Below are positions 33,758-64,000 of a stretch of DNA of 64,000 nucleotides, one piece after another. Source of the DNA: Auanema rhodensis (taxonomy: Eukaryota; Animalia; Nematoda); NCBI GenBank assembly GCA_964057225.1, contig OZ059898.1:7812001-7876000 (forward strand). The letters are read 5' to 3'. The stretch's first letter is position 1. Each line of letters starts with the position of its first letter. The notes below the pieces were generated by a model. The model searched no databases and was not told where the DNA came from. It worked only from the letters and a program-made list of their open reading frames with translations. Position numbers and translations under genes: made by a program.

Positions 33758-36557
33758 ATGGGTTTGTCGGGAGGACCCGGATATCCTCAGGGGCATCAAA
33801 ATGTTCCTCCACAACATGGACAACAACAGCCCGGGCAGGTAGAGACGGTTATACTTGACAAGGAGTATTCTATGGTTTTTAGATGATTTATATGCAACAA
33901 GGAATGGCACCACATGGAATGCAGCAAGGTATGCAACAGAACATGGTACAACAAGGCATGGGACAACCAGGAATGGGCCAAGATGTACAGCAAGGAATGC
34001 AAATGCAAATGCCAATGCATTATCAACATCAGCAACATATGAACATGGGCTCGGGGCAGGTAATGGGCCAACCTGGTCCTCAGATGTCTCAAGTTAATCA
34101 GCAGCACCCTTCTCAAATGTCAAGAATGGTTCAAGGGCAATCCCAAGGTAAACAAAACATTTTAAGCATTCATTTTACCTTGTTTAAGGAGGAATAGGAA
34201 TGCAGCAACAATTGGGAGGACCTCATTCCCAACAAGCCCAAATGGGTGGTCCCCACTCTCAACAGTCTCAAATGGGAGGACCTCACTCTCAACAACAAAT
34301 GGCTGGACCACATTCACAGCAAATGGGAGGACCTCACTCTCAACAACAAATGGGTGGACCACATTCTCAACAGTCTATGGGTGGACCTCATTCTCAGCAG
34401 CAAATGGGTGGACCACATTCTCAACAACAGCAACTAGGGGGACCCCATTCACAGCAGCAAATGGGGGGGCCTCACCCTCAGCAGCAGCAGTTGGGTGGAT
34501 CTCACCCTCAACAACAACAAATGGGCGGACCTCACTCACAGCCGCAGCAAATGGGTGGGCCTCACTCACAGCAGCAAATGGGTGGACCTCATGCTCAACA
34601 ACAAATGGGTGGACCTCATTCACAACAGCAAATGGGTGGACCCCACTCACAGCAAATGGGCGGACCTAGATCTATGCAAGGGCATGCAAGTCATATGGGA
34701 ATATCTGGTCCACATAGCCAGCAACATATGCAACATGTTCCGAATTCACAACAATCCGCTCAATCTCAACAACCTCAAGGAATGGTTGGCCCTATGTCTA
34801 TGCAGAATCAACAAGGCCCGACCGTTGGTTCAATGTCCGTACAATCTCAGTCTGGCTCTCTATCTCATGGAGGGCCTATAGGGCACGGGGGGTCTATGAC
34901 TGTACAACAACAACAACAACAGAGTCAACAACAAAATCAAGGACCGGGGCAACAGCAGTATGTAATGTCTTCACAGGTAGGGCACATGTCATTACCCGGA
35001 CAACCAATGAGACATTCTTCTTCCCTCCAGCATCATGGCGGAACCATCTCAGTTCAGCAGCAACAAACTGGGCCAATGTCAGTACCACAGCAACAACAAC
35101 CTGGATCTATGTCAGGCCCTGGAGGTTCAATGCCTGCCCAGGGCCAAGGGGGTCCAATGTCAGTTCCACAGCAAGGTGGATCAATGTCAATTCAGAACCA
35201 AGGAACATCACTCCCTATGCATCAGCAAGGAGGATCAATGCAAGTTCCGAACCAAGGACCCTTATCTGTTCCTCAACAAGGTGGACCTATGTCAGTTCAA
35301 AATCCTGGAGGACCTATGTCTGTACAAAATCAGGGTACTCCTATGTCAGTTCAAAATCAAGGGGGACCCATGTCCGTTCAAAATCAGGCAGGATCTATGC
35401 TAATTACAAATCAAGGAGGGCCATTGTCCGTTCAGAATCAAGGAGGGCCAATGTCTGTTCAAAATCAGGGAACACCCATGTCAGTTCAAAATCAAGGAGG
35501 GCCAATGTCTGTTCAAAATCAAGGAACCCCAATGTCAGTTCAAAATCAAGGAGGGCCGATGTCTGTACAAAACCAAGGTGGTCCAATGTCGGTTCAAAAT
35601 CAAAGCGGTCCTATGTCTGTTCCTCAGCAGGGACCATTGTCTGTTCCCCAACAAGGTGGTCCTATGTCTGTTCAAAATCAGGGTACACCGTTGTCTATGC
35701 AACAGCAAGGTGGACCTATGTCGGTTCAACAAGGTAAGTGAAAGCTTAAATCATCTGTAGCTCATCCGTATTTGTAGGTCTTGGACCTCAATCTAATCAA
35801 CCATCATCTCAATCTACTGGTGGACCTATGTCAGTTCAGCCTGTGACTCCTCATAATCCACCAAGTCAATCGTCTTCTCAGATGCTGCAAACACAAGGCC
35901 CACATGTTTGTTTGTTTATTTTTTTATTATACGAAAAAATACAATTTTAGCCACCACCTCCTCTAGCGGCAACTCTTCCCCATGCTGCTGATCCGCTCCA
36001 TCTCACAAAAACACTTATTTTGAAAGATCTCCGTCATGCCATTCTTGTAAATTCTTGTTACTTCTATATACTGTATCTTATGAATTATAGACATTAAACA
36101 CCTGTGCTGGAGCCACATTACGAGAGAGAAAAGCCGGTGATGTTGATGTTAATACAGCTCATAAATACCGTAAAGCCATGGATACATTTCAAGCCGTATG
36201 TGACGATATAGAAATGAATTTAGTAATTAATTTCTTGTTGAACTAGAAAATTGTGTATATTTCAGTCCTTAGTTCTCGAAACTCAGAAGCAGCTTCAAAA
36301 ATTCGAAAAGATATTTGAAAAACCCTCGGAAAATCAGAGGCCTGGCCAATCTGATTATGTTCATCATAGTGCTGCAGTAACTACCTATGTAGAGCAAGCA
36401 AAAACAGTAAGGCTCTTTCACTTTTGATAATGTGGTAACCATTTTATCGTAGACTCAAAGAACTTTCGATAGAGCATTGGCTCATATCCAGAAAACACGG
36501 GAAAGTGTTCACGCACGGGAAAATACTGATCCGGATACTATGATGATGGACACATAA
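33758..36557 (+). CDS. mdt-29: Mediator subunit 29 with a very long Q/G/P/M/S-rich repetitive N-terminus
   Basis: C-terminal Med29-like helices DPLHLTKTLILKDLR...KYRKAMDTFQAVCDDIEMNLSLVLETQKQ; stop TAA 36555-36557. Confidence 0.8.
34215..34673 (+). repeat. Coding tandem repeat, ~16 x GGPHSQQQM
   Basis: Read from ORF 34200-35741; 24-30 bp units with synonymous variation. Confidence 0.9.
35148..35732 (+). repeat. Coding tandem repeat, ~22 x GGPMSVQNQ
   Basis: Read from ORF 34200-35741; mostly 27-bp units. Confidence 0.9.
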
Positions 36558-39004: not shown

Positions 39005-41136
39005 ATGTCAACTCCCTATCGGCACCCTGCTTCAAATGCCAGCAGAGTTAGTTTATTGTTTCAAGTTGTTTTATTTTTATCCGTTTTTAAGGCCTTTCAA
39101 GGAAATAATGATTTTACGTTGAAAGCTCCCAAACCACCAGATCGCCCACTCGTTCCTTATATGCGATACAGTAGGAAAATGTGGCAGAAGGTTTTTTCAT
39201 ATATGATATTGACATAACATTTGCCATGTAGGTGAGGGCAGAAAACCCTGAAGCTCACTTATGGGATATTGGTAAAATAATAGGCCAATTGTGGAGGGAC
39301 GCTCCTGATATTGAAAAACAGGTTTTTCAACAAGAATATGAAATGGAAAAAGTATAAATCTCTATTTAAAATATTCGCGAACGTTCATGCTTTAGGTAGA
39401 ATATGAGAAGGCCATGAAAAACTATCACAATTCCCAGGCCTATCAGCAATATATGAACGCAAAGGTACTTATTTGAGTAGTTTCCTATTTTTTGTGTTTT
39501 ATTAGAATCGAGCTAAAACTAATGAAAAATCATCTCGGGCTCGTGTTGATACAGGTGGCGTTGTAATTCAGCCTGTCGATGATGATGAGACTAATAACGA
39601 ACTTACTAGTAGACGTTTGGCAGCCGTAAGGTTGGTTTTTATTCACGCAACAGGGAATTTTTTTTTTTTTAGATTTGATCGTAATCATAGATTAATAAGT
39701 GAGATTTTTTCTCCTGCCATTGTTAATGATGCTCGCACTGTAAGTGATTTTTAGTCATTGTTACGATAATAATTTGTTTTTTGAGATTGTGATTCAAAGT
39801 CGTATTGATATGCTACGTAACCAGGCAAAATCCTTATCTAATCACCAAGGAAAGCTGGAGGAAGAGCTTGCTAAGTACTTTTTGCAGTAAATTAAAGTTT
39901 CATAAGTTTTTCTAAAATTCAGACTTGAATCTGACTATAACGATAGAAAGCGTATTATATCCAAAAATAGCGAAGAGTTTGCTGAAAATTTGAAAAAGGT
40001 ATTTTATCTTATTATGCTCCTATTTCATTTTTTTTCAGGTTTGCGAGGAGAAACCAAAACTAGATGAAGAGAAATTCAATGAGTTAGTCGATGAATGGAA
40101 TGAAAAGTTGTTGGAAGCTTATGAAGAATATAAAAAGAAGCAAGATGAAATAAGTGCTAAATTAGGTAGTTCTATCATTGGTCACGTTAAGATTTCTTTC
40201 TATTCAGCGGCTGAACGCGAAAAGATGGAAAAAGAAACACCTGTACTGGCTGAATTGGTGATGCGTGATGAGGAGGATTCTGAAAGTGATGGAGCTAAGA
40301 AAGATGATGATGTAGCTGGCAACGAATCAGTCGATTCAGAAAAAAAATCTCCTTCATCGGAGAAAAAATCGCCTGAATCCGAGAAGAAATCTCCAGAATC
40401 TGAGAAGCAATCTCCAGAATCTGAGAAGCAATCTCCAGAATCTGAGAAGCAATCTCCAGAATCTGAGAAGCGATCTCCAGCGCCTATCTCCCCGAAAGAA
40501 AATGTTACTGTTGAGGAGAGCAAATCGCATGTAGAAGAGCAAGAAAAAGAAGATGCTAAAGAGCCTTCTGAAACTTCACCTACAAATAAGTCGGATACAG
40601 CAGAAAAAAATACTGAATCGACGATGGAGGTCGATGATCCTGTAGAAAGTGCTTCTGGCAGCCATTTTACCGAACAAAAGACAGCAGATGCCGTCGAAAA
40701 TGCTGCAAATGTTCCATCTCCAATCGAAACATCTGAGAATTTACAAGATAAAGTTGAGTCTGCAGAATCATCTAAAGAAAACACTCTTACTGAGTCTGTG
40801 GAAACAAATGGTGAATCCACTGAAACTGTTCCGTCCACAGATGAAGCACAAGTTGAAGTTGTGGTTTCCCAGGAGTCCTCCGAAAAACCAGAAAAGGAAG
40901 ATACAGCTGAGATAATGAAGGAGGCGGTTGAGGAAGAACAACAACAAGAAAAGGAAGAAGAGGAGAAGAATCAAAATGAAATGGAAGACAAGAATGAGAA
41001 TGAAAACATGAATGATAAAGTAACAGAGAAGGAGAAAGGAAAGGATCAAAGCGAAGCCAAAGAAGCATCAACCGATGGCACAAAAGAAGAGCCAGCTAAA
41101 ACTGAAACTACGATTAAAGAAGAGGAAGCAGCATAA
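39005..41136 (+). CDS. swsn-3: SWI/SNF subunit BAF57/SMARCE1 (HMG box) with a long acidic C-terminal tail
   Basis: [51 protein letters not shown], coiled coil HQGKLEEEL. Confidence 0.88.
40348..40479 (+). repeat. 21-bp coding tandem repeat, ~6 x SPESEK(K/Q)
   Basis: Near-identical tctccagaatctgagaagcaa units. Confidence 0.9.
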
Positions 41137-48868: not shown

Positions 48869-49262
48869 GCCGTTAAATACATACTGCCAAGCCATGTAAG
48901 CAACATTTTCTTGAAAAGGATCCTTCAATGTTAGTGGTGCTGAACTGTCATTCCTATTGGATACTGTATAAACTCTAATATAATCGTTCTGTTGGCAAAT
49001 TGCAAAACGTCTTCCATTTTCATGAATAGCTATACATCGAAGCCATGAGGTTTTCCTATAAATTTAAAAATAAATTTCCAATAACCAATAAAAATTATAC
49101 CAATCTAATGTATGACCATATTTTTGTAGCAAATCTTCGATCCGCTCATGGGCTAAGGTGGGAAATACTTTAGAAGCTATGAAGGATACACTATTTTGAA
49201 CTTTTAAAATTGCAGTCTGCATCAAAATCAAAAAAGGAATGTTAAATTCAAATTTAAGTAGG

Positions 49263-49273
49263 AAAAACAAAAA
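49263..49273 (-). terminator. Pol III oligo-T terminator of the 5S gene
   Basis: TTTTTGTTTTT on the minus strand at the 5S 3' end; repeated at 49739-49749. Confidence 0.8.
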
Positions 49274-49391
49274 GCTTACGGCACCCGGGATTCCCAAGCC
49301 GTCTCCGATCCAAGTACTAACCGGGCCCAACGTTGCTTGACTTGCCAGATCGGACGGGATGGCGTACTTTCAACGTGGTATGGTCGTAAGC
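49273..49391 (-). rRNA. 5S rRNA gene, intact (119 nt)
   Basis: Minus strand GCTTACGACCATACCACGTTGAAAGTACGCCATCCCGTCCGATCTGGCAAGTCAAGC...AGTACTTGGATCGGAGACGGCTTGGGAATCCCGGGTGCCGTAAGCT, a nematode-type 5S with A and C boxes. Confidence 0.97.
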
Positions 49392-49748
49392 GATGCTATT
49401 CCTCTATTAGTGTATCTAGTATCTACCACCATGCCATGGCTGTGCAACAGCTCTTATCTTTCATCAGTCGATAACTGATTCCCTGCACCTCCGGTAACAA
49501 CGTCGTATATGAGGTTCTGTAGATATCCTCGTACATCGGGGTCGTTAAAAATGTCAAAGAAGCGAGAGTATCTCGGAGACAACTTCTCAGAGAAAGATGG
49601 TCGAGATGTTCACAGAAGCTTTCTGTTCCGAGGCTGACCACGACTCCTCAACTCCTCAATAAGTTCACCTTGCTCTGACGACCAAGATCAGCATGCATCA
49701 AAGTCAAAAAAGGAATGTTAAATTCAAATTTAATTAGGAAAAACAAAA

Positions 49749-49858
49749 AGCTTACGGCACCCGGGATTCCCAAGCCGTCTCCGATCCAAGTACTAACCGG
49801 GCCCAACGTTGCTTGACTTGCCAGATCGGACGGGATGGCGTACTTTCAACGTGGTATG
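49749..49858 (-). rRNA. 5S rRNA gene copy 2, nt 10-119 (interrupted by LTR element)
   Basis: Identical to copy 1 over 110 nt, 476 bp away; ends at TSD GTATG (49854-49858). Confidence 0.96.
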
Positions 49859-50258
49859 TGTCGGCGAATGCCTGACTAGAAATGAAATACAATAATTTAA
49901 CCTAGAAACATAACTCTTCTGAAACTCTAAACCATTGTCTAATAACCTTGTAATTGTATCATTAACCTCTTGCGCAACATTCTTAAAGGATATTGAACTT
50001 TTATCACCTCTATAGTTTACATTGACCTGACCTTTGTATTCAAATATCGAATATCACCTTCAAGCTAAATCATATATAAAGCCCAAGAAACCTTCACTCT
50101 CACTCTTAATTTAATTCTACCACTGAACTTATACCGATCTTATAATAAACCTTTCTCATTTAACTAACTGTTTGGATTCGCCACTAACTCATATTATCCC
50201 CATTAACCGGGGAACAACCGAGTATAGACGCTCGTCATTGGGAACATTGAAAACCAAA
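49859..50258 (+). repeat. 5' LTR (400 bp)
   Basis: TGTCGGCG...AAAACCAAA; TATATAAA 50073-50080; AATAAA 50144-50149; matches 57779-58178 base for base. Confidence 0.97.
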
Positions 50259-50259
50259 T

Positions 50260-50272
50260 TGGTGCAACGACC
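50260..50272 (+). promoter_or_regulatory. Primer binding site, probably tRNA-Gly
   Basis: TGGTGCAACGACC 1 nt after the LTR; near-complementary to the recalled tRNA-Gly(GCC) 3' end ...GGUCGAUGCACCA. Confidence 0.75.
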
Positions 50273-50505
50273 AAACCAGGTATTAATTGTTAGAAACTTT
50301 CTTATCATATTTTTTCCTTTTTTTTCATACTTTCCATCTCACTCTTCTCCACATTTTCCTCCTTTTCATCTCGTTCTCTTTATCAAAAAAAAAAATTTTT
50401 TTTTTTTTATAAACCAACATACTTTAAACAGTTGAAACTGTTCATTTTGCAATCATTCTACTAAGAAATTCCAAAATAATCCACTTTCGACCCGAAAAAG
50501 AAAAA

Positions 50506-53500
50506 ATGGACCGTATCGAAACGGTTTTTAATACAAAATTCCAAAGTTTCGTTCAAACTTTTGAAAAACTAGAGAGCCTTTTGGAAAACAAACAAAGTGA
50601 GGAACAATTCTCTCTTTATTCCGACATTAACAACACTCTTGAACAGCTTCGCTTTCACGAATCCAATTTAGCTACCATAGCTTCACTTCAAATAGACCCT
50701 TTTCTTTCGGAATTTAATAATCGTATAAATAATTTAACAAACCAACATGCCGCAACTATAGAAAGAGCAAACAAAAAACTGTTTGAGCTCGAAACTAAAG
50801 TTGCTGGCGCACACTCAATCCCGGACTCAGACGATGAGACCGAACTAGCACTTACCGCACCGCATACAACCCTTTTTACATCACCGCGCATTTCGAAAAC
50901 GAACATTAGCAAATTACTTTTGAAACCACCTCAACTTTCCATACCCACATTCAATGGAGATAACAAAACCTTTCCGACATTTTGGAGACAATTTAAAACG
51001 CTCATTCACCAAGACCCTGACCTCAATAATAGGCAAAAAAGCATTTATTTAGCTGAAGCTCTTAAAGGTTCAGCACGAGTTCATCTTGAAAATAAACCAT
51101 TAGATGGCACTGCGTATGAACGTATTATATCTACTCTTAAAACCACTTACGCACCAAAACTAAAAGTTGATTACCGTATTCATGATGAACTGGTGAAATT
51201 ACCTCCTGCAAAAAATGACCCCATGTCAGTCAGATCTCGCGTGAATGAAATCAGAGCACTTCTTGATCAGCTTGAGACTGATACACTTTATAATTCTGAA
51301 GACCCCGCTTGGGTCAAACTTATCACAACTAAATTTCCTATTGATATCATCAATATGCTCTGTTGGAGATCATCTAGGGCAACCTCTATAAAACAACTAC
51401 TAAGAAACATTGAGGAAACGGCCGACTCAATGGAAAATTTTTCAATTTATTCTTCTAAATCTCCTTTTATCCCGCAATACCATGCTCAAACTAATTCAAC
51501 TTCTCCCTTGAAACATAACTCACATATTACAACTGTTACGAAAACCGAACGCCCATGCGTATTTTGTGACCAAAACGGACATCGATCCGCAAAATGTTTA
51601 ACCATACATAATCCTCAACAGAGGAGAGACATAATAAAACAAAAAAACAGGTGCTGGATTTGTTTCAGTCCTACACACACTAGCACTAAGTGTACCTTTG
51701 ATAAATGTAAAATATGTAATAGAGATCATCACCCATCTCTTTGTCTCCCTCCTGCTTCATCAAAATCATCTAATAAAAAAGCAACCATGGGTATCAATTG
51801 CTCTATTTCGCAATCAACTCACACTCCACCTTCGCCCGCATATCTTATGACTTCTAAAGTATCAATTTTTAACCCCCATACAGGTAAGTTCCACACCAAA
51901 ATATTGTTTTTCGACCCTGGAGCAACTCAAAGCTTCATTTACGAGCCGGCAGCCAGAGAATGCCAGCTCAAAACTTTAAATTCCCAATTAATCACAGCAA
52001 CCGGTTTCTCCGGGAGCTGTGAGGCATTTAATTCTTTAACGGTCGAAGCAAGTTTAAGAACTCCATTTGGAAAAAATATCATACTTACGCTCCTCACCTC
52101 ACCCAAACCTCTCACAGGAAAACTAAAGAGCTGTCAACTTTCTCTAAAAGACAAAGAAGCTCTAGAACAATCTAATATAACCATTACTAACCAATTGGTG
52201 GATGGTGAATTATTCATTCCCGATATTTTGCTAGGTATGGATTGGTGTGATACAATCATACATGATACCAAACCTACTATACTTCCATCGGGATTGAAAG
52301 TCAAACATACCCAGATTGGACCCTGTATTTACGGTAAGCAAATACCGAACGATAATATCGCAGCCATAAATACACTTATTGTTAACCCTGTGATACCAGA
52401 AGACGTTATGATTAAACAACTTTTTGAAATAGATAACTTAGGAATTTCTCCACACGAAGGAGCCTTGAACCGATCGGAGCTATTCTTCAATGAATATACT
52501 TCGCTAATAAAATTCGACAAGGGTTTTGTTATGGCTCCCTTACCTCTTAAATCAAACGCCACAAAAATTCAATCCAATCGAAGCATGGCATTAGCCACTC
52601 TAAACAGATTACAGAAATCTCTCAAAGAGGAACATAACCAGCTACAACACTATCATCAAACCATTATGCGATATATAGAGGAAGGTGTGGTGGAACAAGT
52701 TCCTCTTACTTCAGAGAACTCTTTGCTCTACTACATGCCGCATAGAGGGGTATGGAAGCCCAACAAGAGCAAACCGCTGAGGGTTGTGTTTAACGCTTCA
52801 GCAAAGCAAAAAGGCCAACTCTCATTAAATGATGTTACGGAAACAGGTGAAAGTTTTAACAATAAAATCATAGATATTCTGATAGGGATACGGATCAAAA
52901 AGTACTTCCTCATGTGCGATATTGAGGGTGCCTTCACCCAAATAAGGATAACTAATGATCATAAAGATCTCTGCCGCTTTCTCTGGTTACGCGATCCTCA
53001 CAAAGGTACCACTCCAGATAACATTTTAGAATTAAGATTTAACCGACTGGCGTTTGGCATAACAGCCAGTCCGTCCATACTGAATATGTCACTCTACGCA
53101 TTCTTGCAAAGCCTAGAGTCGCACTTAGTTCCGGAAACCCTACGGTACCTATATGTGGACAATATCTTCTACACGACAAACAGTTCAGAAGATTTACATA
53201 GCATATATGAAGAATCTAAGCAGATTTTTTCTCGAATATCTATGAACATAAGAGAGTATTATAGCAACTACACCAACTTCAACTCAACCGTACCAGACAA
53301 GGATAAACATCCAGATCTGAACCCAAAAATATTAGGCATTAAACATTATTCAGATAAAGACATTTTTTCGATAAACTGTCAACTACGCACTCAGAACTCA
53401 TTCACAAAACGAGATCTACTCAGCAGTCTTCACAGTGTTTACGACCCTTTAGGAGTAGCGGCTCCCCTTTTACTGCATTTCAAACTACTACTACGCCAAG

Positions 53501-56500
53501 TAATGAATGGGTCTATAGACTGGAAAGAACAAGTGCCAAGCGATGTGGTCAATAGCTGGAATACAGTGAGTAATAAAATAGGAACAGCTACGATTCAGAT
53601 TCCACGAAAGCTGACAGATACATCAGAATGCCGAGAGATTTGGATATTTGTAGACGCTAGTGTACTAGCTATTGCTGCATGTGCCTTCTGCACATCACCT
53701 ACAACACGGAGTCCCCTGGTCATGGGTAAGATTAAATTAGCTCCAAAAAACAGAACATTGACAATTCCACGTTTGGAAATGTCTGCAATTCTCATGGGTA
53801 TGAAAATGGCCGAAACCATATACAACAATTTACCAACACATGAGGTCTCCATCAACATCGCTTCCGACAGCCAGATAGCTTTATCTTGGCTGTTCACTAA
53901 AAAGAATATACCTGTGTTCGTAAGCAATTTACGCCAGAATACTGACCAAATTGCAAGAAAATTAGAGCTAAAAGGAGCCAATATAACGTATCACTACGTG
54001 GACACGGATCATAATCCGGCAGACATAGGCACTAGAGGCACCACTGATATTGCCCTTCTTAAGGACAAATGGCTTTTTTCTCCTGAGTGGCTATTAAATA
54101 AGAACGATAGACCAGCAAAGGAATTCAGAGCACCTTTAGAAGAAGAAGAACCTTCAATGCTTATACTACCAGTCACCACAAACAATCCTGTATTAGACAA
54201 TCTTTTAGATCCCAGCCGCTTCAGCTCATACTTCAAGTTACGCAGAATCGCTGGATTAGTTTTAAAAGCCGCACTGTATTTTTTAGGCAAACGCAACAAA
54301 ACGCCAACATCATATTTATTAAAAGCAGCAACAACAGAATGGCAAGTATCCCAGTTTATTAACACAACCGCTGAGATACTGCTTATAAAAGAAGCTCAGA
54401 CTCATCTTTCAAATTCATATAAAAAACAATTTCGATTAAAACAGGATGGGAATGGACTAACCTGCATACAGACTCGGTTCACCAATTCATCACTTCCAAC
54501 AAAAACTAAGTTTCCATATCTTCTTCCCAAAAAATCTACTTTAGGTAAACTCATTCTTATGTTCCTACACAGGACGAATGGTCATGCCGGAGTTAGCCAA
54601 TTACTGTACCTCTTTATGACAAGGTTCTTCATGACAGCGGCTAGACAAGTATGCAAATCAATAATAAAAAGATGTGTGCCATGTCAAAAGACTCTAAGTA
54701 ACCCATTTTCAATAGAATACTTTGCCCCGTTACCGGAGGACAGAGTGACGAGAGCTATGCCATTTAGACATACAGGCCTTGATTGCATAGGTCCCATAAA
54801 ATTCAGAAAAAATCAGCATATATACGTTGTGATATTCACCTGCCTTACTATTAGAGCCGTCCATTTAGAACCAATTAATGACATGAGTTCGAACTCTTTT
54901 ATCAATGCCTTCATTCGATTTGTAGCGCGGAGAGGTTTACCACATGTTCTACGATCAGACAACGGGGCCAATTTCACTCATGCGGCCAAAATACTTCACA
55001 CATTAGAGGAACATAGTAGGGAACACCAGACTAATTTTATCAACTATATACAAAATCACAATATCACATGGATATTCAACACTCCCAGCGCTCCCTGGAC
55101 TGGTGGGGTTTGGGAGAGATTAGTTGCTATTACAAAGAATGCACTTGTGAAAACACTATCACTTAAGTTAATAGAAAAAGACCAACTAGTTACAGCAATA
55201 ATTAAAATAGAAGGAATCATGAACTCACGGCCCATCACGTATACAGATTCCGAGAATTTTCACGAGAATCCACTAACGCCAGCAGATTTTTTAACTCATG
55301 GCTCCCCCATACTCATACCAGGTGATAATGTAGACAGTTTAGGTGACAGACTCGACCTACCCAACACGATCGCAAGCAACAAACAAGCGTTTGAAAATTT
55401 ACAGAAAATCGAAATAATAGCCGAAGCATTCTGGAACACATGGTCACACGAATATCTTCTTACTTTAAGGCATGCACATGCATCAAGGAAAATGGGGCAC
55501 CATAACTTGCGACACCCATATCACAACGAAATAGTACTTGTAGAAGAGGACCATACAAATAGAAACAATTGGAATATGGCTAGGGTAATCGAACTAATTC
55601 CTTCTTCAGACAAAGTAGTTCGGACCGCCAAGATAAAAACAGGTAGCGGTAAGATATTGACAAAACCAGTAGAGCGATTATACCCTTTAGAACTTTTTGA
55701 TGAATTCACAGAAACTCAGCGAAAAACCGCACATATTAACCATGCCACCTATTCAACACACCCAAACACAAGGCATACGAATACGAATTTTTTGACTAAT
55801 ATCATGAAATTCTTATTATTAATACAACTATTTTTTGTCGCCACAGCTGAGCCATTATTCACCTGCTCATACTCTCATATACTATTTCCCGCACAAACAA
55901 AACCATCGACATTTTGTATTAATGGGGACTGTCATGATTTACCAGCCAACCAATCAAAAGATATTCAACTTCAAGTGTCTGTAATTCCAAAAACTACAGC
56001 AGTTACTCGCTACGACAAAGATAGGCGGCAAACTCAGATTTGTCATCTCCCCCACCCCTGCGATTTTCCTCCACCTGCGTTATTGCATATAATAGGCAAC
56101 CCACATTGTAACCCTTTCTTAGCTATTTTGATAGCTCTTACTCCAATAATAGGCTGCGCTCTTTTTTGCATTATCGGGGGTCTAATCTATAAAAAATTAA
56201 AAACACACCGCCAACAGCACACAATTTCGTACATCCCTTCTCTCTTATTCGCAATCTTTTATCTCACATGCCAAGCGCAAGCTTGTGGATCCCCCAACGC
56301 GCACAAACACATAGAATTCTTTTGCGACGATTTACACAATTGCACAAAAATAACCAACGAAGAAATTTCATTCAATCCCCTACAAAACTCTCTTTGCTCC
56401 TACATAAAATATCAAAACTCCACTATAGGCAAACTAGAAATTCAAATAATTCAGCAAAAATTTTTATGTCAAAAAGTTTCCCAAGGATTTACTCGCATTA

Positions 56501-57795
56501 CTAACCTAACTATCCACTCCTCTCATAGATGCGCCGGTACAACTCACTGCCCATGGGGCACCGGATGCGATGATATCCGACAGGATACTTTCGTAGCCGA
56601 ACTACATTCAGCTTACGAAAATCCTGGAAGAACCTACTGCACCAGAGCCGGAGGAGGCCTATTCAACAGCTGTGGACTTCCTATAGAAGGATGCATTTTA
56701 TTTAGGCCAACTTATCAGCCCGAAAACGAAGAAGTATACGAAGAAATTAAATGCATACAATGGAAACAGGAAGTGCAAGCAAAATTATTAATCACATACC
56801 TCAATAACACTCACCAATACGATATTTTCCTACAACCCTACCGAAAATATGAGTTTCACGGAATTTCATTACAGATTTCGTCGGTTACAACAAAAGCAAC
56901 GACGGAACTATACAACAAAATTTTTCTCACATCTGAGACTAAAAGCTACATGATACCGGAACAAATAAAACCAGCGGTAATATGCAGCAATGCACGAATC
57001 GCAGCAGATAAGTTTAATGCATGCCACATACGAAAGCCTTGCCCATGTTTGGGGGCCGCAGCGCAGCTCTCTTGCAATTGCGATTCAGCAACACAAAGAG
57101 AACTGAAAAAATATAAACTTCCACAAATTAATACAAATTATAGAATCACAAAAGAAGCAGGAACAATAACTGTTTTATCACAAATGGAAGAATCAACGCT
57201 CACAATGGAAAACCCGCAATTTAGCATCGAAAGCTTATATACTAATAGACATCCTTGTTCTTCAGATTTTCAAATGTTAACAGGATGCTACAAATGCAGA
57301 GAAGGAACAACGCTGAATATTACATGTGAAACAAAGGACGAACTGAATGCCATTCTGAACTGCGACTCCTTTTCTACTACAATACGATGCTCTGACCAAA
57401 ATCCCGCCACAACGGTCAAACTATATTTCAATGAACCCAAAGTACAAGAAAACTGTACTCTGACTTGCGGACGAGCAACAAAACAAATTATACAGCTAAG
57501 TACCAGACTACACTACATAAGCGACACTACCATTTTTTCAGAAGAATCGATCAAACTACATAATGGAACATCCGGACTATCATGGAATCTCCCGAATTTG
57601 GAACCGCTTTTCGACGTCATCCATGATAATTGGAAATGGATAGTACCTGCCGTAGCTGCAATCACTGCAGGTTCATACTTATTATACATAGCAGCCCCAT
57701 TCCTTACATCATTACTTCTTCCTGCTACACTCTCTTATTGCTGTGTGAGAAACTCAAACCGCAACCCTCGCCCGGCAATGTCGGCGAATGCCTGA
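50506..57795 (+). CDS. Gag-Pol-Env polyprotein (2,429 aa)
   Basis: Gag PTFNGD..F..FW..F; knuckles CVFC..H..C, CWIC..H..C, CKIC..HH...C; protease FDPGATQSFI; RT YVDN; RNase H FVDAS/IPRLE/SDS/NPAD; IN HHCC plus GLDCIGP, SDNG, GGVWERLV; then Env. The stop lies inside the 3' LTR. Confidence 0.97.
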   Translation: MDRIETVFNTKFQSFVQTFEKLESLLENKQSEEQFSLYSDINNTLEQLRFHESNLATIASLQIDPFLSEFNNRINNLTNQHAATIERANKKLFELETKVAGAHSIPDSDDETELALTAPHTTLFTSPRISKTNISKLLLKPPQLSIPTFNGDNKTFPTFWRQFKTLIHQDPDLNNRQKSIYLAEALKGSARVHLENKPLDGTAYERIISTLKTTYAPKLKVDYRIHDELVKLPPAKNDPMSVRSRVNEIRALLDQLETDTLYNSEDPAWVKLITTKFPIDIINMLCWRSSRATSIKQLLRNIEETADSMENFSIYSSKSPFIPQYHAQTNSTSPLKHNSHITTVTKTERPCVFCDQNGHRSAKCLTIHNPQQRRDIIKQKNRCWICFSPTHTSTKCTFDKCKICNRDHHPSLCLPPASSKSSNKKATMGINCSISQSTHTPPSPAYLMTSKVSIFNPHTGKFHTKILFFDPGATQSFIYEPAARECQLKTLNSQLITATGFSGSCEAFNSLTVEASLRTPFGKNIILTLLTSPKPLTGKLKSCQLSLKDKEALEQSNITITNQLVDGELFIPDILLGMDWCDTIIHDTKPTILPSGLKVKHTQIGPCIYGKQIPNDNIAAINTLIVNPVIPEDVMIKQLFEIDNLGISPHEGALNRSELFFNEYTSLIKFDKGFVMAPLPLKSNATKIQSNRSMALATLNRLQKSLKEEHNQLQHYHQTIMRYIEEGVVEQVPLTSENSLLYYMPHRGVWKPNKSKPLRVVFNASAKQKGQLSLNDVTETGESFNNKIIDILIGIRIKKYFLMCDIEGAFTQIRITNDHKDLCRFLWLRDPHKGTTPDNILELRFNRLAFGITASPSILNMSLYAFLQSLESHLVPETLRYLYVDNIFYTTNSSEDLHSIYEESKQIFSRISMNIREYYSNYTNFNSTVPDKDKHPDLNPKILGIKHYSDKDIFSINCQLRTQNSFTKRDLLSSLHSVYDPLGVAAPLLLHFKLLLRQVMNGSIDWKEQVPSDVVNSWNTVSNKIGTATIQIPRKLTDTSECREIWIFVDASVLAIAACAFCTSPTTRSPLVMGKIKLAPKNRTLTIPRLEMSAILMGMKMAETIYNNLPTHEVSINIASDSQIALSWLFTKKNIPVFVSNLRQNTDQIARKLELKGANITYHYVDTDHNPADIGTRGTTDIALLKDKWLFSPEWLLNKNDRPAKEFRAPLEEEEPSMLILPVTTNNPVLDNLLDPSRFSSYFKLRRIAGLVLKAALYFLGKRNKTPTSYLLKAATTEWQVSQFINTTAEILLIKEAQTHLSNSYKKQFRLKQDGNGLTCIQTRFTNSSLPTKTKFPYLLPKKSTLGKLILMFLHRTNGHAGVSQLLYLFMTRFFMTAARQVCKSIIKRCVPCQKTLSNPFSIEYFAPLPEDRVTRAMPFRHTGLDCIGPIKFRKNQHIYVVIFTCLTIRAVHLEPINDMSSNSFINAFIRFVARRGLPHVLRSDNGANFTHAAKILHTLEEHSREHQTNFINYIQNHNITWIFNTPSAPWTGGVWERLVAITKNALVKTLSLKLIEKDQLVTAIIKIEGIMNSRPITYTDSENFHENPLTPADFLTHGSPILIPGDNVDSLGDRLDLPNTIASNKQAFENLQKIEIIAEAFWNTWSHEYLLTLRHAHASRKMGHHNLRHPYHNEIVLVEEDHTNRNNWNMARVIELIPSSDKVVRTAKIKTGSGKILTKPVERLYPLELFDEFTETQRKTAHINHATYSTHPNTRHTNTNFLTNIMKFLLLIQLFFVATAEPLFTCSYSHILFPAQTKPSTFCINGDCHDLPANQSKDIQLQVSVIPKTTAVTRYDKDRRQTQICHLPHPCDFPPPALLHIIGNPHCNPFLAILIALTPIIGCALFCIIGGLIYKKLKTHRQQHTISYIPSLLFAIFYLTCQAQACGSPNAHKHIEFFCDDLHNCTKITNEEISFNPLQNSLCSYIKYQNSTIGKLEIQIIQQKFLCQKVSQGFTRITNLTIHSSHRCAGTTHCPWGTGCDDIRQDTFVAELHSAYENPGRTYCTRAGGGLFNSCGLPIEGCILFRPTYQPENEEVYEEIKCIQWKQEVQAKLLITYLNNTHQYDIFLQPYRKYEFHGISLQISSVTTKATTELYNKIFLTSETKSYMIPEQIKPAVICSNARIAADKFNACHIRKPCPCLGAAAQLSCNCDSATQRELKKYKLPQINTNYRITKEAGTITVLSQMEESTLTMENPQFSIESLYTNRHPCSSDFQMLTGCYKCREGTTLNITCETKDELNAILNCDSFSTTIRCSDQNPATTVKLYFNEPKVQENCTLTCGRATKQIIQLSTRLHYISDTTIFSEESIKLHNGTSGLSWNLPNLEPLFDVIHDNWKWIVPAVAAITAGSYLLYIAAPFLTSLLLPATLSYCCVRNSNRNPRPAMSANA
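55804..57795 (+). other. Envelope region: short Gn-like protein plus phlebovirus-like class II fusion protein Gc (from 56284)
   Basis: Signal-like MKFLLLIQLFFVATA, NPHC+TM, second signal ending ..CQAQA|C, Cys-rich ~500-aa Gc (SSHRC..C, PGRTYC, LTGCYKCREG, NCTLTCG) and C-terminal TM. Confidence 0.85.
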
Positions 57796-58178
57796 CTAGA
57801 AATGAAATACAATAATTTAACCTAGAAACATAACTCTTCTGAAACTCTAAACCATTGTCTAATAACCTTGTAATTGTATCATTAACCTCTTGCGCAACAT
57901 TCTTAAAGGATATTGAACTTTTATCACCTCTATAGTTTACATTGACCTGACCTTTGTATTCAAATATCGAATATCACCTTCAAGCTAAATCATATATAAA
58001 GCCCAAGAAACCTTCACTCTCACTCTTAATTTAATTCTACCACTGAACTTATACCGATCTTATAATAAACCTTTCTCATTTAACTAACTGTTTGGATTCG
58101 CCACTAACTCATATTATCCCCATTAACCGGGGAACAACCGAGTATAGACGCTCGTCATTGGGAACATTGAAAACCAAA
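57779..58178 (+). repeat. 3' LTR (400 bp)
   Basis: Identical to the 5' LTR; followed directly by TSD GTATG (58179-58183). Confidence 0.97.
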
Positions 58179-58192
58179 GTATGGTCGTAAGC
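58179..58192 (-). rRNA. 5S rRNA gene copy 2, displaced nt 1-14
   Basis: GTATGGTCGTAAGC is the reverse complement of the 5S 5' end GCTTACGACCATAC. Confidence 0.93.
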
Positions 58193-58312
58193 TATGCTAT
58201 TCCTCTATTAGTGTATCTAGTACCTACCACCATGCTACGGCTGTGCAACAGCTCTTATCGTTCATCAGTCGATAACTGATTCCTTGCACCTCCAGTAACA
58301 CCGTGGTATATG
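58193..58312. repeat. 5S upstream spacer, second copy (homologous to 49392-49511)
   Basis: 120-bp ungapped alignment, 9 mismatches by manual count. Confidence 0.92.
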
Positions 58313-61300
58313 TTTTCTCTTTTCATTGTTACTTTTGTGATTGCTACTTTTGGAGAGCATTTTATCATGAATACTTCTTTTTGACATTCGATAGAAATCC
58401 ATGTTTCTTCTGCCGTAAGGCATTGGAATTCTGCGAATGCACCCTGCCCGCAGGAGTAGCAACCTGATAGTTTTGTCAGGGCAGGTGCGCAAGGCAAATT
58501 GTTGGAGAAAATCACTGAGTTTAAGAATAGGGATGAATCGACCGTAACTAAATTTTCGTCTAAATTCGTAGAGAATGATAACGTGTTATCTTTAGTTTTA
58601 AAGTTTTGGTTAGGAGATTTTATGTCTGATGTATTGGACATTTTTTCAAAAGTAGGGGTATCACACCTACATTTTATTTCATCAAATCTATTGAATGTGC
58701 AAGGGCAGAATGAGGATACTGTACAGTTATTAAAATGTTTTAATGCGGCTTCCTCTGTTGCACATTGAATTATTCCCTTTGTGTGTATATCCGTAATGTA
58801 CGTGTTTTCTTTGGAGGAAAAAAATAATTTTGTGTACATTTCTGGAGGAGGTTGTGATTGTGATAACGTTGTTATATTGAAAAGTTGTTCACGATTTTTC
58901 GTGTAAGGTTGTAGAGTGATATTGTAATTATTTTTCTGCTGGAGTAATGTTGTTTCTATATTAAATACGGTTTGGGTGGACCAACTATCACAAGTATAGA
59001 CTTCGTATACTTCCTCAGTGACGGGTATATGCTCTATTTTGTAGAAAAGACACGGATCTGTCCAAATCATAGGACATGTGTAAAATCTCGCTGACGATGT
59101 GAAACAACCTGATTGTGAAGGGAACGTATATGGTTGTAGTTCCTCGATTTTATTATGGAGCGAGTTAGTTTCACATGTTCCGTCACACGAGCCCCGGTGA
59201 CGGCATCGTAATATGCTCAATATGTTGACGGTTGTCTGTCTAGTGAAGTATCTAGTATTCTTCTGGCAGACATGTTCAGTATATAGTTTAGTTATTTTAA
59301 ATTGACCAATTTCATGATTAGAATGCGTTATGGTAATGCATAATTGTTTTGTTCCGGGAGAAAATATGATATCTTGACTGTATTCGTGATAACAAGCTAA
59401 GTTGTCATCGCATCGTATGTTAACGAAGTGTTGAACATGAACATCGGAACATGAACTGCAGCTTCCAATACATAAAGCCAAGATGATTGCCAGTAACGAT
59501 GGTAAAGATGTTTGCGACCCTCTAGTAAAGAGAGAGAATTTTGGTGGCTTTCTCGTATGGTTTAAAATAGGGTAAATATGCTTTTGAAAGGTTTCATGAT
59601 CCACAATATTAGCGTCTTGTGTGTTCGTTTGTTTTAATTGCAACGTATCATTGTGGTCTTCTGTTATTTTTTGATCAGTTTCATGATCTTCTTGTTCGGA
59701 GATTGTGTTATGTTTTAATTTCATGATGTTGAGCATGGTTTGAGTGTTTTTGGACCATATCTTATATCTATATTGGCTGTAACCCATGCGGCATAGACAA
59801 GAGATTATGAGGGTAACTGCCATAATGGTTATTATCACTGTCCATGTTGCCATTTCTGGGGAGCAATGAGGATTCGCTATAAGTTTTGTGGTGAACATGT
59901 TAGAGTCCTTGCAACTATTGATTTCTTCGGCATATGTCGAAGTAATTATAATCGGTAATGAAAGGGCTTTCATTATGTCAGCTGCTATTTTTGGGTTTAT
60001 TTTATTTTTTCTTTGGTGTGTGGCATAGGACATTTTTAGTGGGAAGGCTTTTATATTTTCCTTCTCAGTGACCTCATCTTGTTCTGTATATTTTGCTGTT
60101 TTCACTGATGATAGTTTTGTTTTATTTTGAGGTCGATCGTTTGTTGCATCCTCATTATTCTCTGTTTCTGGAGTGTATGTATTATCATGTTGAGAGTTGT
60201 CTGATTCATATGCAATATCGTAATTATGATTGCTATCATTTATGTTATTGTTCTCATGTATTGTTTCATCTGTATGTTCTATATGATGATCGGAGTGTAT
60301 GTTGTCTAATACGGTATCAGTATGTGCTATTCTATCTGTTGAGCTATTATTTTCTTGGACTATGTGTGAGTTGTCTTCTATGATTTTGTTGTTGCTAGTG
60401 TTGCATCTTATCTCTAGTGGATAGAGCTGATTGATGGATCGAGTAATTATGTTTCCGTTGCTTGTTGCAACTTTTGCTGAACGTATGTTGCCATCTGAAC
60501 TAGTAATTGTTTCAATAATGCGACCTAGTTTCCATGTTCCTCGTGGCGACATGTCGTTTTGTATTATTACGATTTCATCCTTGTGAGGAAAGAGATTTGT
60601 GTGATTTTTTCTCTTGTTTTTATGTTTGAAAATGTCTTTTAAACTAGTTAGATACTCCTCCTGGAAACGTGTCCAGAATTTAGACGCTGAGTCTTCTGAT
60701 AACTGAAGAGCTTCTAGCGCTTGTTCTGTCGATTGAATCGTTTGGATATCGCTGTGAATATCGAATATATGAGTGTTATCATTGTTTTCTGGTAATGAAA
60801 ACTTTATTGCTGATGTTAAAAAATCAATTGGTCTTATGGGTAAAGCATCTAAATTATCTGGGTGTGGATGAGTGAGTGGGCGTGTATTAATTATGGCTTC
60901 TATTTTTACAATAGCTGTGTGTAAATCATCTAGTGACATTTGACTAGGAACGAAGCATTTTTTGAGGGATGATTTGGTGACACCTACTAAGCGTTCCCAA
61001 CAACCTCCTTTCCAAGGAGATAGCGGAGTGTTGTATATCCATTTAATTTTTCTTTGAGCTAATGTGTTTAGTATGCTTCTTTCATTGTAATCCGAGGTTT
61101 TTTCAAGGGTTTCTAATATTTTTGAGCTCAGAATAAAGTTTCCTGCGCAGTCACTGCGCATAATTTCTGGAGTACCTCTGCGTGAAATAAATCTATTAAA
61201 TGCATTCATAAAGGCAACTGTGGATTGATTGGTGACTACCTCTAAGTGAACCGCTCTAGTTGTCATGCATGTAAACAGACAAATATGGACTTTAGACCCA

Positions 61301-63999
61301 TTTCGAAGGGTGAAGGGGCCCATAAGATCACACCCTGTTGAAAAGAATGCTCTTGTAAGAATTGCTCTGTCTTTTGGTAGCGATGGCATATCTGGTAATT
61401 CATAAGGATGTGATTGAAATCTTTTACATGTCACACAGTTTTTCAATGTTTGCTTAATGACTCCGGTTATTTTTGGTATATAGAACTTTTGTCTGAGTTG
61501 AATAAGCGTGAAATTTTTGCCTTGATGATTATTATCTTTGTGTATTTTGTTGATCAGTTTTTTAACTATGGGGTTTGTTTTGAGAAGGAATATAGGGTTT
61601 TTTGTCTCTTCGGGAAGAAGAGTATTTTGTAAACGACTTCTTACGCGATAAATGTCCCATGTATCTTTGAAGAATTTTAAATTTATATTTCTTTGCTGTA
61701 GCTCATCGAGGCTCATATTAGATTGGCTGTTACTGATCAAAATTTTTTCAATTATGTTGATGTCTTCAACAGTATTCGTGTCTGTTGATGTGAGATGTTT
61801 TATTTTTTGCAACTTGTTGGCGTTGCTAGGATTTTCACGAATGTTCCAAATATCATCGGTTGGAAGATTGTCTATAATTATGTGGACCACATTGTGATGC
61901 TCCGATTCTGATTCTGCGTTATTCCTGTTAGAGTTCTTAGGCGAGCCGAATGATGTCAGAGGGTTATGAGCGGAAAGTTTAGTTAACCAATGTGGACCCT
62001 TTATCCAGTCGGAATCTTGTAGTTTCTCGATGTCTGCACCTCGGGATCCGATGTCTGCAGTATTGTACGAGGTTTGTACATGATGTAATTCTACATTGCA
62101 ACATACTTGTTTGATTTGGTGTAGCTGTTTATTTATAATGTTTGTTTGATTTTTAATGAACAGTGGGAGGGATTTTAGAGAAATAATCCATGATAGCGCG
62201 ATGTTGCTATCGCTTACAATGTTGACTTTTGCCACTTTCGGGCATATGGTTACAATAGCTAATGCCATTCGTACTGCTAAGCGGATGGCTAATAATTCTA
62301 ATCGAGGAATTGTGGTCTTATTTTTGGGTGCTATGCGGGATTTACCGTTGAGCAGAGAACTAATCTGCTCGTTTGTTTGGAAATATGAACATGCGGCCAT
62401 GGCTTGGTTGCTTGCGTCAGCAAAGACCCATAACTGTGTTTTATGTTCAGAGAATTTAAAATATCTTTTCATGGTCAATTGCTGATTGTTAATGTGATTA
62501 ATATGTTGTTCCCATTGTTTGATATTATCTGATTCAATGGGTTGGTCCCATGATAATTTTGTGTTTATGATTTCTCGCAAGATAAGTTTGAGAGGTAACA
62601 GTAATGGTGCTGCTAATCCAATGGGATCAAATATTGAGTGTAGCTGACTGAGTAGAATTCTCTTGGTGTAACTTGTGTGAGTCGTTGTTATTTTTATTGG
62701 GATAATGAAGGAGTCGTGTTCTTTATTAAAAGATATGCCAAGTATTTTGGTTGTCATGTTCGGATATCTGTCTTCTTCAGGAAGGTTCTGTATTACTTGT
62801 TCGTCGTTTGACAAGAATTCGCGAACATGCATGTTTATTTCTGTAAATAGTTTTTGGGTTTCTTTACATTTCTTTATAGCTTCTGCTGTTGTATTTGCTG
62901 TAAGAATGATATTGTCAACGTATAAGTTGTTCAGTATTTCCATAGCTAATGGGTTGTCTACTTTTGATTCTAAGAACCATTTTATGCCCATGTTCAATAC
63001 GCTGGGGGATGCAGTGATACCGAACGGTAATCTGTTGAATCGAAGGGTTATGATATTATTGTGAGATATTGGGTATTCTTTGTTTTTTATCCAAAAGAAT
63101 TTGCATAGATTTTTGTGATTCTCTGTCAGTTGTATTTGTAAAAATGCGGCTTTGATATCACATGTTATTAATATTGGTCTTGTTCTGCAGGAGATCATGA
63201 TGTCGTGTATATATGTGATAAATGATCGTCCTGTGTGTATTATCTCATTCAACGATGGGCTGTCTTTCTGTTTAGCGGAGGCGTCAAAAACGATTCTGAG
63301 AGGGTTAGCCTTGCTGGGCTTCCAAACCCCATGGTGGGGCATATAAAACTCTAAAGGCTTCTGGTGATTGTTGGGAATTTGTTCGACAATGTTATCTTTG
63401 AGGTAACTTTCAATGGTTGTAGTATAGTGTGAGAGCATTTCTGGATTGTGCAGTAACTTTCGCCATAGGGATACGAATCTATGGTACGCGGGCATTTTGT
63501 TGTTTTTAAGATTTTTGAAGTTATTTTTTAACGGGAACGGTGCAATAATGCGGTTGTTCTCAATTTTTATATCTTTTGAGTATTCTTCATAGTAATCAAT
63601 AGTGCGGTCTGCGTTGGCATTTTCTGTATTGATGCCGATAGAATCCAGTTCAAACAGATTAGTGAGGAGTTCTTTATGAGAGGTTTCTTTTGTTATTTCT
63701 TCTACTGTAGAGCATAATATTACTTTTTGTTGTGTATTATCATCGGGAAGAGGAGCTTCTCCATGTATCATGTGGCCGAATACCGAATTTTTCAATCTCA
63801 TACGTGAGGGGAGTTCGGTTTCTTCGTTTAAATGCATGAACAGTTTGTATCTATCCATACCTATCAGTATATCCGGAGTAAATGATTCTCCGTTTGTTTG
63901 TGGATTGGCTAATTTTATTTTTCTTGTCTTTATAAATTTCAAGTCTTCTTTAGATAGTTTTGGACAACGTATGGGTGTGGTTAACATGGGTTTGGTGAA
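58255..63999 (-). CDS. Partial Pol-Env polyprotein (>1,910 aa, open at window edge); the last ~19 codons are read-through into the 5S spacer
   Basis: Uninterrupted ORF; Gn-like signal from 59973, Gc from 59451; terminal IYHGVTGGARNQLSTDER* comes from spacer sequence. Confidence 0.92.
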   Translation of the reverse strand, partial: FTKPMLTTPIRCPKLSKEDLKFIKTRKIKLANPQTNGESFTPDILIGMDRYKLFMHLNEETELPSRMRLKNSVFGHMIHGEAPLPDDNTQQKVILCSTVEEITKETSHKELLTNLFELDSIGINTENANADRTIDYYEEYSKDIKIENNRIIAPFPLKNNFKNLKNNKMPAYHRFVSLWRKLLHNPEMLSHYTTTIESYLKDNIVEQIPNNHQKPLEFYMPHHGVWKPSKANPLRIVFDASAKQKDSPSLNEIIHTGRSFITYIHDIMISCRTRPILITCDIKAAFLQIQLTENHKNLCKFFWIKNKEYPISHNNIITLRFNRLPFGITASPSVLNMGIKWFLESKVDNPLAMEILNNLYVDNIILTANTTAEAIKKCKETQKLFTEINMHVREFLSNDEQVIQNLPEEDRYPNMTTKILGISFNKEHDSFIIPIKITTTHTSYTKRILLSQLHSIFDPIGLAAPLLLPLKLILREIINTKLSWDQPIESDNIKQWEQHINHINNQQLTMKRYFKFSEHKTQLWVFADASNQAMAACSYFQTNEQISSLLNGKSRIAPKNKTTIPRLELLAIRLAVRMALAIVTICPKVAKVNIVSDSNIALSWIISLKSLPLFIKNQTNIINKQLHQIKQVCCNVELHHVQTSYNTADIGSRGADIEKLQDSDWIKGPHWLTKLSAHNPLTSFGSPKNSNRNNAESESEHHNVVHIIIDNLPTDDIWNIRENPSNANKLQKIKHLTSTDTNTVEDINIIEKILISNSQSNMSLDELQQRNINLKFFKDTWDIYRVRSRLQNTLLPEETKNPIFLLKTNPIVKKLINKIHKDNNHQGKNFTLIQLRQKFYIPKITGVIKQTLKNCVTCKRFQSHPYELPDMPSLPKDRAILTRAFFSTGCDLMGPFTLRNGSKVHICLFTCMTTRAVHLEVVTNQSTVAFMNAFNRFISRRGTPEIMRSDCAGNFILSSKILETLEKTSDYNERSILNTLAQRKIKWIYNTPLSPWKGGCWERLVGVTKSSLKKCFVPSQMSLDDLHTAIVKIEAIINTRPLTHPHPDNLDALPIRPIDFLTSAIKFSLPENNDNTHIFDIHSDIQTIQSTEQALEALQLSEDSASKFWTRFQEEYLTSLKDIFKHKNKRKNHTNLFPHKDEIVIIQNDMSPRGTWKLGRIIETITSSDGNIRSAKVATSNGNIITRSINQLYPLEIRCNTSNNKIIEDNSHIVQENNSSTDRIAHTDTVLDNIHSDHHIEHTDETIHENNNINDSNHNYDIAYESDNSQHDNTYTPETENNEDATNDRPQNKTKLSSVKTAKYTEQDEVTEKENIKAFPLKMSYATHQRKNKINPKIAADIMKALSLPIIITSTYAEEINSCKDSNMFTTKLIANPHCSPEMATWTVIITIMAVTLIISCLCRMGYSQYRYKIWSKNTQTMLNIMKLKHNTISEQEDHETDQKITEDHNDTLQLKQTNTQDANIVDHETFQKHIYPILNHTRKPPKFSLFTRGSQTSLPSLLAIILALCIGSCSSCSDVHVQHFVNIRCDDNLACYHEYSQDIIFSPGTKQLCITITHSNHEIGQFKITKLYTEHVCQKNTRYFTRQTTVNILSILRCRHRGSCDGTCETNSLHNKIEELQPYTFPSQSGCFTSSARFYTCPMIWTDPCLFYKIEHIPVTEEVYEVYTCDSWSTQTVFNIETTLLQQKNNYNITLQPYTKNREQLFNITTLSQSQPPPEMYTKLFFSSKENTYITDIHTKGIIQCATEEAALKHFNNCTVSSFCPCTFNRFDEIKCRCDTPTFEKMSNTSDIKSPNQNFKTKDNTLSFSTNLDENLVTVDSSLFLNSVIFSNNLPCAPALTKLSGCYSCGQGAFAEFQCLTAEETWISIECQKEVFMIKCSPKVAITKVTMKRENIYHGVTGGARNQLSTDER

Positions 64000-64000
64000 T
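58313..64000 (-). mobile_element. Second env-bearing BEL/Pao element, 3'-truncated at the 5S spacer; 5' part lies outside the window
   Basis: RT YVDN, RH FADAS/IPRLE, IN GCDLMGP/SDCAGNF/GGCWERLV, NPHC+TM and Gc-like domain; no Gc stem/TM, PPT or 3' LTR before the spacer. Confidence 0.93.

Follow-up and report, generated by a model that had tools for sequence, protein, structure and literature searches.

An intact enveloped belpaovirus within a 5S rRNA gene of the nematode Auanema rhodensis, a candidate 5S-targeting LTR element

Introduction

A 64,000-nucleotide (nt) stretch of the genome of the nematode Auanema rhodensis (assembly GCA_964057225.1, contig OZ059898.1, positions 7,812,001 to 7,876,000) contains a long terminal repeat (LTR) retroelement that splits a 5S rRNA gene. 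We refer to this stretch as the window and give all positions in its coordinates. The question raised by the locus is whether the element arrived by chance or whether its integrase targets 5S genes or RNA polymerase III (Pol III) chromatin, as was proposed in an original prediction made from the sequence. Our analyses indicated that the element family probably targets the 5' end of 5S genes. The prediction also cautioned that one insertion cannot prove specificity, and we share this caution, as the evidence consists of one full insertion, one junction of six letters and indirect signs in the contig graph.

Results

Insertion at nucleotides 10-14 of a 5S gene

Self-comparison of the window revealed the letters GTATG directly outside both LTRs, a 5-base-pair (bp) target-site duplication (TSD). 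The gene parts on either side of the element, 49749-49858 and 58184-58192, together formed a 5S gene that was the same in every letter as the intact copy at 49273-49391, which bears out the prediction that cutting out 49859-58178 and one GTATG restores the gene. The element is 8,320 bp long, splits one 5S gene, and has its TSD at nt 10-14 of that gene, as predicted. Rfam model RF00001 matched both gene copies on the minus strand, with 107.5 bits for the intact copy and 84.8 bits for the interrupted copy from 49749, whose 5' stem is broken. The open reading frame (ORF) of the element is on the plus strand, and the element was correctly described as antisense to 5S. The insertion at +10 to +14 of the 5S gene is clean, has a 5-bp TSD and is of the type made by an integrase. 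The probability of a random insertion falling into 5S coding DNA was 1e-5 to 8e-4, assuming 20-400 gene copies and a genome of 60-300 Mb. The target at nt 10-14 is not palindromic (6 of 15 positions). The features of the insertion are as follows.

49273-49391, minus strand: intact 5S rRNA gene of the leftmost array unit in the window; likeness to the next unit stops at 49218
49392-49748, no strand: 5S spacer (repeat unit 476 bp), with no SL1 or other Rfam RNA found
49749-49858, minus strand: 3' part of the split 5S gene (nt 10-119), with the same sequence as the intact copy
49854-49858, no strand: left TSD, GTATG (5S nt 10-14)
49859-50258, plus strand: 5' LTR, 400 bp, starting with TG and ending with CA and two further A, with TATATA at LTR nt 215 and AATAAA at nt 286
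50260-50273, plus strand: sequence resembling a primer-binding site (PBS), opening with TGG 1 nt past the LTR
50506-57795, plus strand: single gag-pol-env ORF of 2,429 amino acids, with its stop codon within the 3' LTR
57779-58178, plus strand: 3' LTR, the same as the 5' LTR, with no purine-rich tract in the preceding 24 nt
58179-58192, minus strand: right TSD (58179-58183) together with the 5' part of the split 5S gene (nt 1-14)
58193-58312, no strand: 5S upstream spacer, 120 bp, a variant of the spacer of the first unit (58179-58312 is 93% like 49378-49511)

Structure of the element

The LTRs are direct repeats that agreed at 400 of 400 positions, and the ORF was confirmed to be unbroken; both had been claimed in the prediction. 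Along the ORF the Pfam domains DUF1759, RVT_1, Peptidase_A17, Integrase_H2C2, DUF5641, Phlebovirus_G2 and G2_C were identified in this order. The capsid-like DUF1759 (residues 149-281) is followed by three CCHC knuckles in the nucleocapsid region (residues 351, 383 and 401), a protease-like motif at residue 468, the reverse transcriptase active site YVDN at residue 883 and Peptidase_A17 at residues 967-1122. The integrase has an HHCC zinc finger (residues 1345-1396), core motifs at 1424, 1484 and 1536, and DUF5641 at 1632-1728. Further downstream are hydrophobic stretches (residues 1761-1788 and 1867-1898), a region resembling the glycoprotein Gc (residues 1944-2329; PF07245, Phlebovirus_G2, E-value 1e-46, plus PF19019) and a C-terminal transmembrane segment (residues 2378-2410). 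All seven matches in the PDB were in the Gc region, and the best of these was chain 7a4a_A (E-value 2e-21, residues 1944-2323), which we take to be Gc of the env-bearing belpaovirus Atlas.

The left LTR end is a plain TG, and the right end is CA with two further A, both before the PBS (50247-50260) and before the TSD (58167-58183). The element thereby departs from the canonical 5'-TG...CA-3' LTR termini, which suggests that its ends may be processed atypically and asymmetrically. The PBS-like sequence may match tRNA-Gly; no tRNA gene was found in the window. The stop codon of the ORF is 15-17 nt inside the 3' LTR, and with the missing purine-rich tract (57755-57795) this raises the possibility that plus-strand priming is unusual.

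Classification and relatives

Judged by its domains, the element is a BEL/Pao (Belpaoviridae) LTR element of the env-bearing kind exemplified by Atlas. It has the LTRs, the order gag, protease, reverse transcriptase, RNase H, integrase, and the DUF1759, Peptidase_A17 and DUF5641 domains of this family, and all of the 120 best of 1,035 matches in a search with Pol carried PF05380. The earlier identification of the element as a young and intact belpaovirus with an envelope, lying in a 5S gene, was right. Among those 120 best matches, the closest Pol relatives were elements of Ancylostoma ceylanicum and Haemonchus contortus, 36-39% identical. A quick tree of 23 BEL rows (21 of the 120 Pol matches and both BEL/Pao elements of the window, with no outgroup from another family) grouped the two in one clade with six elements from strongylids, with SH-aLRT support of 100. 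These relationships point to a nematode host, probably one near the strongylids. The strongylid members (A. ceylanicum Y032_0154g2997 and Y032_0037g3370; H. contortus V3C99_018183 and its kin) share this clade but are distant in Pol, and the Haemonchus ones are spread over several chromosomes.

Atlas is an intact env-bearing belpaovirus with identical LTRs that was already known (PMC9094657). The window element shares with Atlas and other env-bearing nematode belpaoviruses the single gag-pol-env ORF, the identical LTRs, three CCHC knuckles, the phlebovirus-like Gc and YVDN, the last reported as a feature of the nematode members (PMC9094657). It differs from Atlas in the length of its ORF (2,429 against 2,828 amino acids) and of its LTR (400 against 271 bp; PMC9094657), and in having approximately 180 residues between the first hydrophobic stretch of env and Gc, where Atlas Gn has 421. 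The strict Atlas clade has been defined by a capsid core of more than 50% identity to the Atlas capsid at more than 70% cover (bioRxiv 10.64898/2026.03.22.711591). A capsid search with residues 135-325 gave 0 of 202 candidates at an E-value of at most 0.001, and among 142 local proteins the highest identity was 32%, in comparisons that did not include the Atlas capsid sequence itself. By this measure the window element is probably outside the strict Atlas clade.

Relatives were found in 13 of 122 metagenome stretches; all 13 were closer to other BEL proteins than to the window element, and no Rfam RNA was found in them. Pol searches identified relatives in 0 of 9 and 0 of 47 viral contig stretches and in 0 of 68 from prokaryote genomes, and a search of metagenome contigs for 5S nt 10-46 abutting TG or CA gave 0 matches; these collections are poor in nematode DNA, which makes the blanks uninformative.

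Evidence on other copies in public sequencing contigs

Fifteen public runs from four studies carry the window or part of it, 11 of them with at least half of its words, and no RNA run was listed. The comparison covered four of the 15 runs (X1, X4, X5 and X9, from three studies) at window positions 56500-59500, which hold the right side of the insertion and not the left junction or the intact 5S gene. There were 9, 11, 7 and 46 partly matching records per run, of which the rows seen cover 7, 6, 6 and 18; 24 of 62 loose ends were seen, and 1,311 other pieces were outside the comparison. Graph simplification prunes short links to much deeper repeats and keeps long unique flanks. Logan contigs are the non-branching graph paths that remain after SPAdes-like simplification (PMC12424806).

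One contig, in X4, followed the LTR to 58172 and then continued with 12 other letters. The first six of these had the length and the CA+AA shape of the LTR end in the window, with two neighbouring letters swapped, and the last six were identical to 5S nt 10-15 on the sense strand. This contig likely represents a variant element in the same 5-bp site and in the opposite orientation. With its different LTR end and opposite orientation, the junction would be an independent event. In the host DNA at 1-48500 the junction 6-mer occurred at 1.6e-4 per position and its antisense counterpart at 1.1e-4, or approximately 3e-4 for either. We also considered whether the variant end was a fold-back chimera of the left junction in the window, and rejected this because its first five letters differed, by eye, from the reverse complement.

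The LTR start at 57779 was crossed by single contigs in three of the four runs, spanning three studies (X1, 57756-57942; X4, 57056-57942; X5, 57563-57942), X9 being too fragmented to be informative there. In the two runs for which it was computed, the ratio of LTR depth to internal depth was 1.91 (X1) and 1.89 (X5). There are thus about two LTRs per body and yet the LTR start is unbranched. This indicates that a 5' LTR exists whose link to the DNA upstream was pruned, which would be expected if that link was short and led into a much deeper repeat. Had a copy been in unique DNA, the contigs that cross 57779 should have been broken, and the pattern argues against LTR copies in unique DNA. Among the loose ends seen, none was at 57779, and the sole one at 58178 was the PBS side of the element itself, in all four runs.

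Two further observations concern variation within the family. A sister subfamily, approximately 90% identical in env DNA (56500-58018; X1, X4, X5 and X9), was present at a depth similar to that of the window variant, and its LTR diverges beyond 58018. At 57969, both LTRs of the window share a letter unlike that in all X1, X4 and X5 contigs, consistent with either a distinct variant or a shared assembly error.

A second, truncated element

The DNA to the right of the interrupted gene holds part of another retroelement.

58313-64000, minus strand: second env-bearing BEL/Pao element of the same clade, cut within Gc at 58313, with its 5' part beyond the window

Its ORF (58255-63987, minus strand) passes out of the element at codon 1892 and runs for another 18-19 codons before it stops in the 5S spacer. 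Identity to the first element was 36% in the amino acids of Pol and 26% in Gc, and the sole DNA match was 39 nt. No C-terminal transmembrane segment, 3' LTR or TSD was found at the 58313 junction, and in all four runs compared the sequence of the second element continued with other letters at this point. The junction is a truncation, by deletion or rearrangement, and not an integration site, which rules out the second element as a second targeted insertion. The original prediction had counted this related element, 134 bp away, in favor of targeting. We could not sustain that argument: the neighbor is a distant relative, cut inside env, with a junction that has no LTR or TSD. The second element was approximately three times deeper than the first in X1, X4 and X5, and its running on past 58313 there indicates longer copies elsewhere.

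The 5S array and its surroundings

The DNA to the left of 49218 is unique and gene-rich, which identifies the locus as an edge of the 5S array. The C. elegans 5S unit carries an SL1 gene; SL1 was not found in the 476-bp unit of the window. The units also differ in length, that of C. elegans being 976 bp (PMC8961926). Host exons between 13785 and 47954 matched G-protein alpha, Omp85, Ham1, peptidase C13 and Ig domains (5 of 17 scanned frames), as in ordinary gene-rich DNA up to the array edge. Two long single-exon ORFs, 34200-35741 (513 amino acids) and 40225-41136 (303 amino acids), are built of internal repeats and had no Pfam match.

Discussion

The claim that the integrase targets 5S or Pol III chromatin gained from the variant junction in X4 and from the lack of any unique-flank junction among the contigs seen. 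It lost the argument from the neighboring element, and specificity is not proven. We slightly favor the narrower proposal that the family targets 5S nt 10-14 through tethering of its integrase to Pol III factors. The fullest version, in which a lineage of enveloped nematode belpaoviruses integrates at 5S nt 10-14 with single-base precision, in either orientation and with a CA+AA right end, independently of Ty3, Tj1 and Ty1, seems to us evenly balanced between true and false.

Several observations weigh against targeting. The second junction is one contig in one of four runs and comprises six letters; should the CA be part of the LTR, the flank shrinks to four letters, for which the expectation rises to 2.5e-3 per position. 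No piece among those listed bridged the LTR-5S junction of the window itself, and the deep repeat behind the pruned junctions could be one other than 5S. Depth ratios in X1 corresponded to 4-5 copies of the window variant, approximately 15 of the second element and 55-87 5S units if one 66-deep contig is single-copy, but depth is no sure copy number and the window variant may have one copy if that contig is not. The Pfam scan identified no extra domain in the integrase after DUF5641. The nearest Haemonchus relatives are on four different chromosome-size contigs, with one cluster of 90% identity on two of them and at several gene numbers; the wider clade, judged from this contig spread with flanks unseen, is not confined to one array.

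One alternative is that a single untargeted belpaovirus fell by chance into a redundant 5S copy, where it was tolerated and may have been duplicated along with the array; the end of the variant contig would then be a coincidence or assembly scrap. One full insertion has been seen, the unbranched contig pattern is equally expected from a single insertion and from one amplified with the array, and array edges collect element debris, of which the truncated second element is an example. The dispersal of the Haemonchus relatives also fits a lack of targeting. In C. elegans three copies of a 1.6-kb "Repeat 1a" (chrV 17,126,625-17,128,232) share a single position in the 5S unit, which could represent array amplification (PMC8961926). 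We nevertheless consider chance unlikely, given the low prior for each insertion calculated above and the match of the variant end to the same TSD in the opposite orientation, a six-letter match expected at about 3e-4. Amplification, moreover, cannot flip the orientation and alter the LTR end.

A second alternative accepts that targeting is real and attributes it to direct recognition of the 5S DNA sequence by the integrase, as has been supposed for Dada-5S and for sequence-specific non-LTR elements. Both candidate junctions are at the identical 5 bp, whereas the Tj1 inserts in 5S genes are more widely scattered, and the contigs compared contained no unique-flank junctions of the kind that dispersed tRNA genes would give. 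A Drosophila review describes sequence-specific LTR integration as exclusive to errantiviruses, which pair it with atypical LTR ends (PMC5408687). The errantivirus targets are palindromic, however, whereas the 5S target is not, and an integrase that reads a long asymmetric sequence would presumably insert in one orientation. On balance we regard direct read-out as rather improbable, more so than chance insertion. Least credible by far is a misassembly in which a repeat element was fused to the 5S array: the lack of a bridging piece among those listed, and the absence of the second-element junction from the rows seen in all four runs, would fit one, but a misjoin would not yield a perfect 5-bp duplication at both LTR ends and halves that sum exactly to one gene.

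The element probably copies itself by tRNA-primed reverse transcription, which would start from the TGG site behind the 5' LTR. TFIIIB is upstream of the transcription start and TFIIIA is on the internal control region from approximately +45, with the first turns of the gene between them. If targeting through host factors is correct, a symmetric integration complex may dock on TFIIIB, upstream, or on TFIIIA/TFIIIC at the internal control region, and would then cut the exposed DNA a short way past the start site, whichever its orientation. Insertions in both directions at a single site would follow from a two-fold symmetric complex anchored by a host protein, and the non-palindromic target favors such position-based tethering over a symmetric sequence read-out. 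That no unique-flank junctions were seen hints that the target is 5S and not every Pol III gene, which would point to TFIIIA. Each insertion would disable one of many 5S copies, at little cost to the host.

Two comparable systems, Ty3 of S. cerevisiae and Tj1 of S. japonicus, are fungal Metaviridae without env. Ty3 integrase is positioned by TFIIIB (PMC5911963), and three Tj1 inserts have been described at -3, +30 and +41 of 5S genes (PMC4600332). Landing inside the 5S gene, as observed here, would be compatible with tethering, given these Tj1 inserts. Like the window element, Ty3 and Tj1 are LTR elements that insert within a few bases of a Pol III start, in the case of Tj1 also inside 5S; they differ in belonging to the Ty3/gypsy lineage, in using mostly tRNA genes upstream of the start and, for Tj1, in inserting in one orientation. 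The window element is a belpaovirus, enveloped, from an animal, and located at +10 to +14 with both orientations suggested; it could work like Ty3 without being one. Dada-5S, a DNA transposon, and Mutsu, a non-LTR element, make similarly site-specific use of the multicopy 5S gene in fish, but they are of other element classes, and the published Dada-5S target is another part of the gene than nt 10-14 (PMC8869645, PMC3706591).

In one review, precise LTR integrase targeting of Pol III genes is tabulated only for yeasts and social amoebae (Dictyostelium; PMC5911963). According to a 2024 review, no insertion of an element within the 5S gene proper has been reported (PMC10946416); there are three exceptions, Dada-5S, Mutsu and Tj1, which it overlooked or listed elsewhere. 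The terms "5S rRNA" and "target site" are absent from the main texts of both Atlas papers (PMC9094657; bioRxiv 10.64898/2026.03.22.711591). In agreement with the original prediction, we found no report of a 5S-specific BEL/Pao element in the literature, in a search that left Repbase and most subscription journals outside.

If the family does target 5S genes, it would represent an independent origin of integrase tethering to the Pol III machinery, in an animal, and precise 5S targeting by an LTR element of a kind so far described only in yeasts. Structural studies would gain a naturally site-specific integrase whose target is conserved and multicopy. Such targeting would also help to account for the survival of intact enveloped elements in the compact genomes of nematodes.

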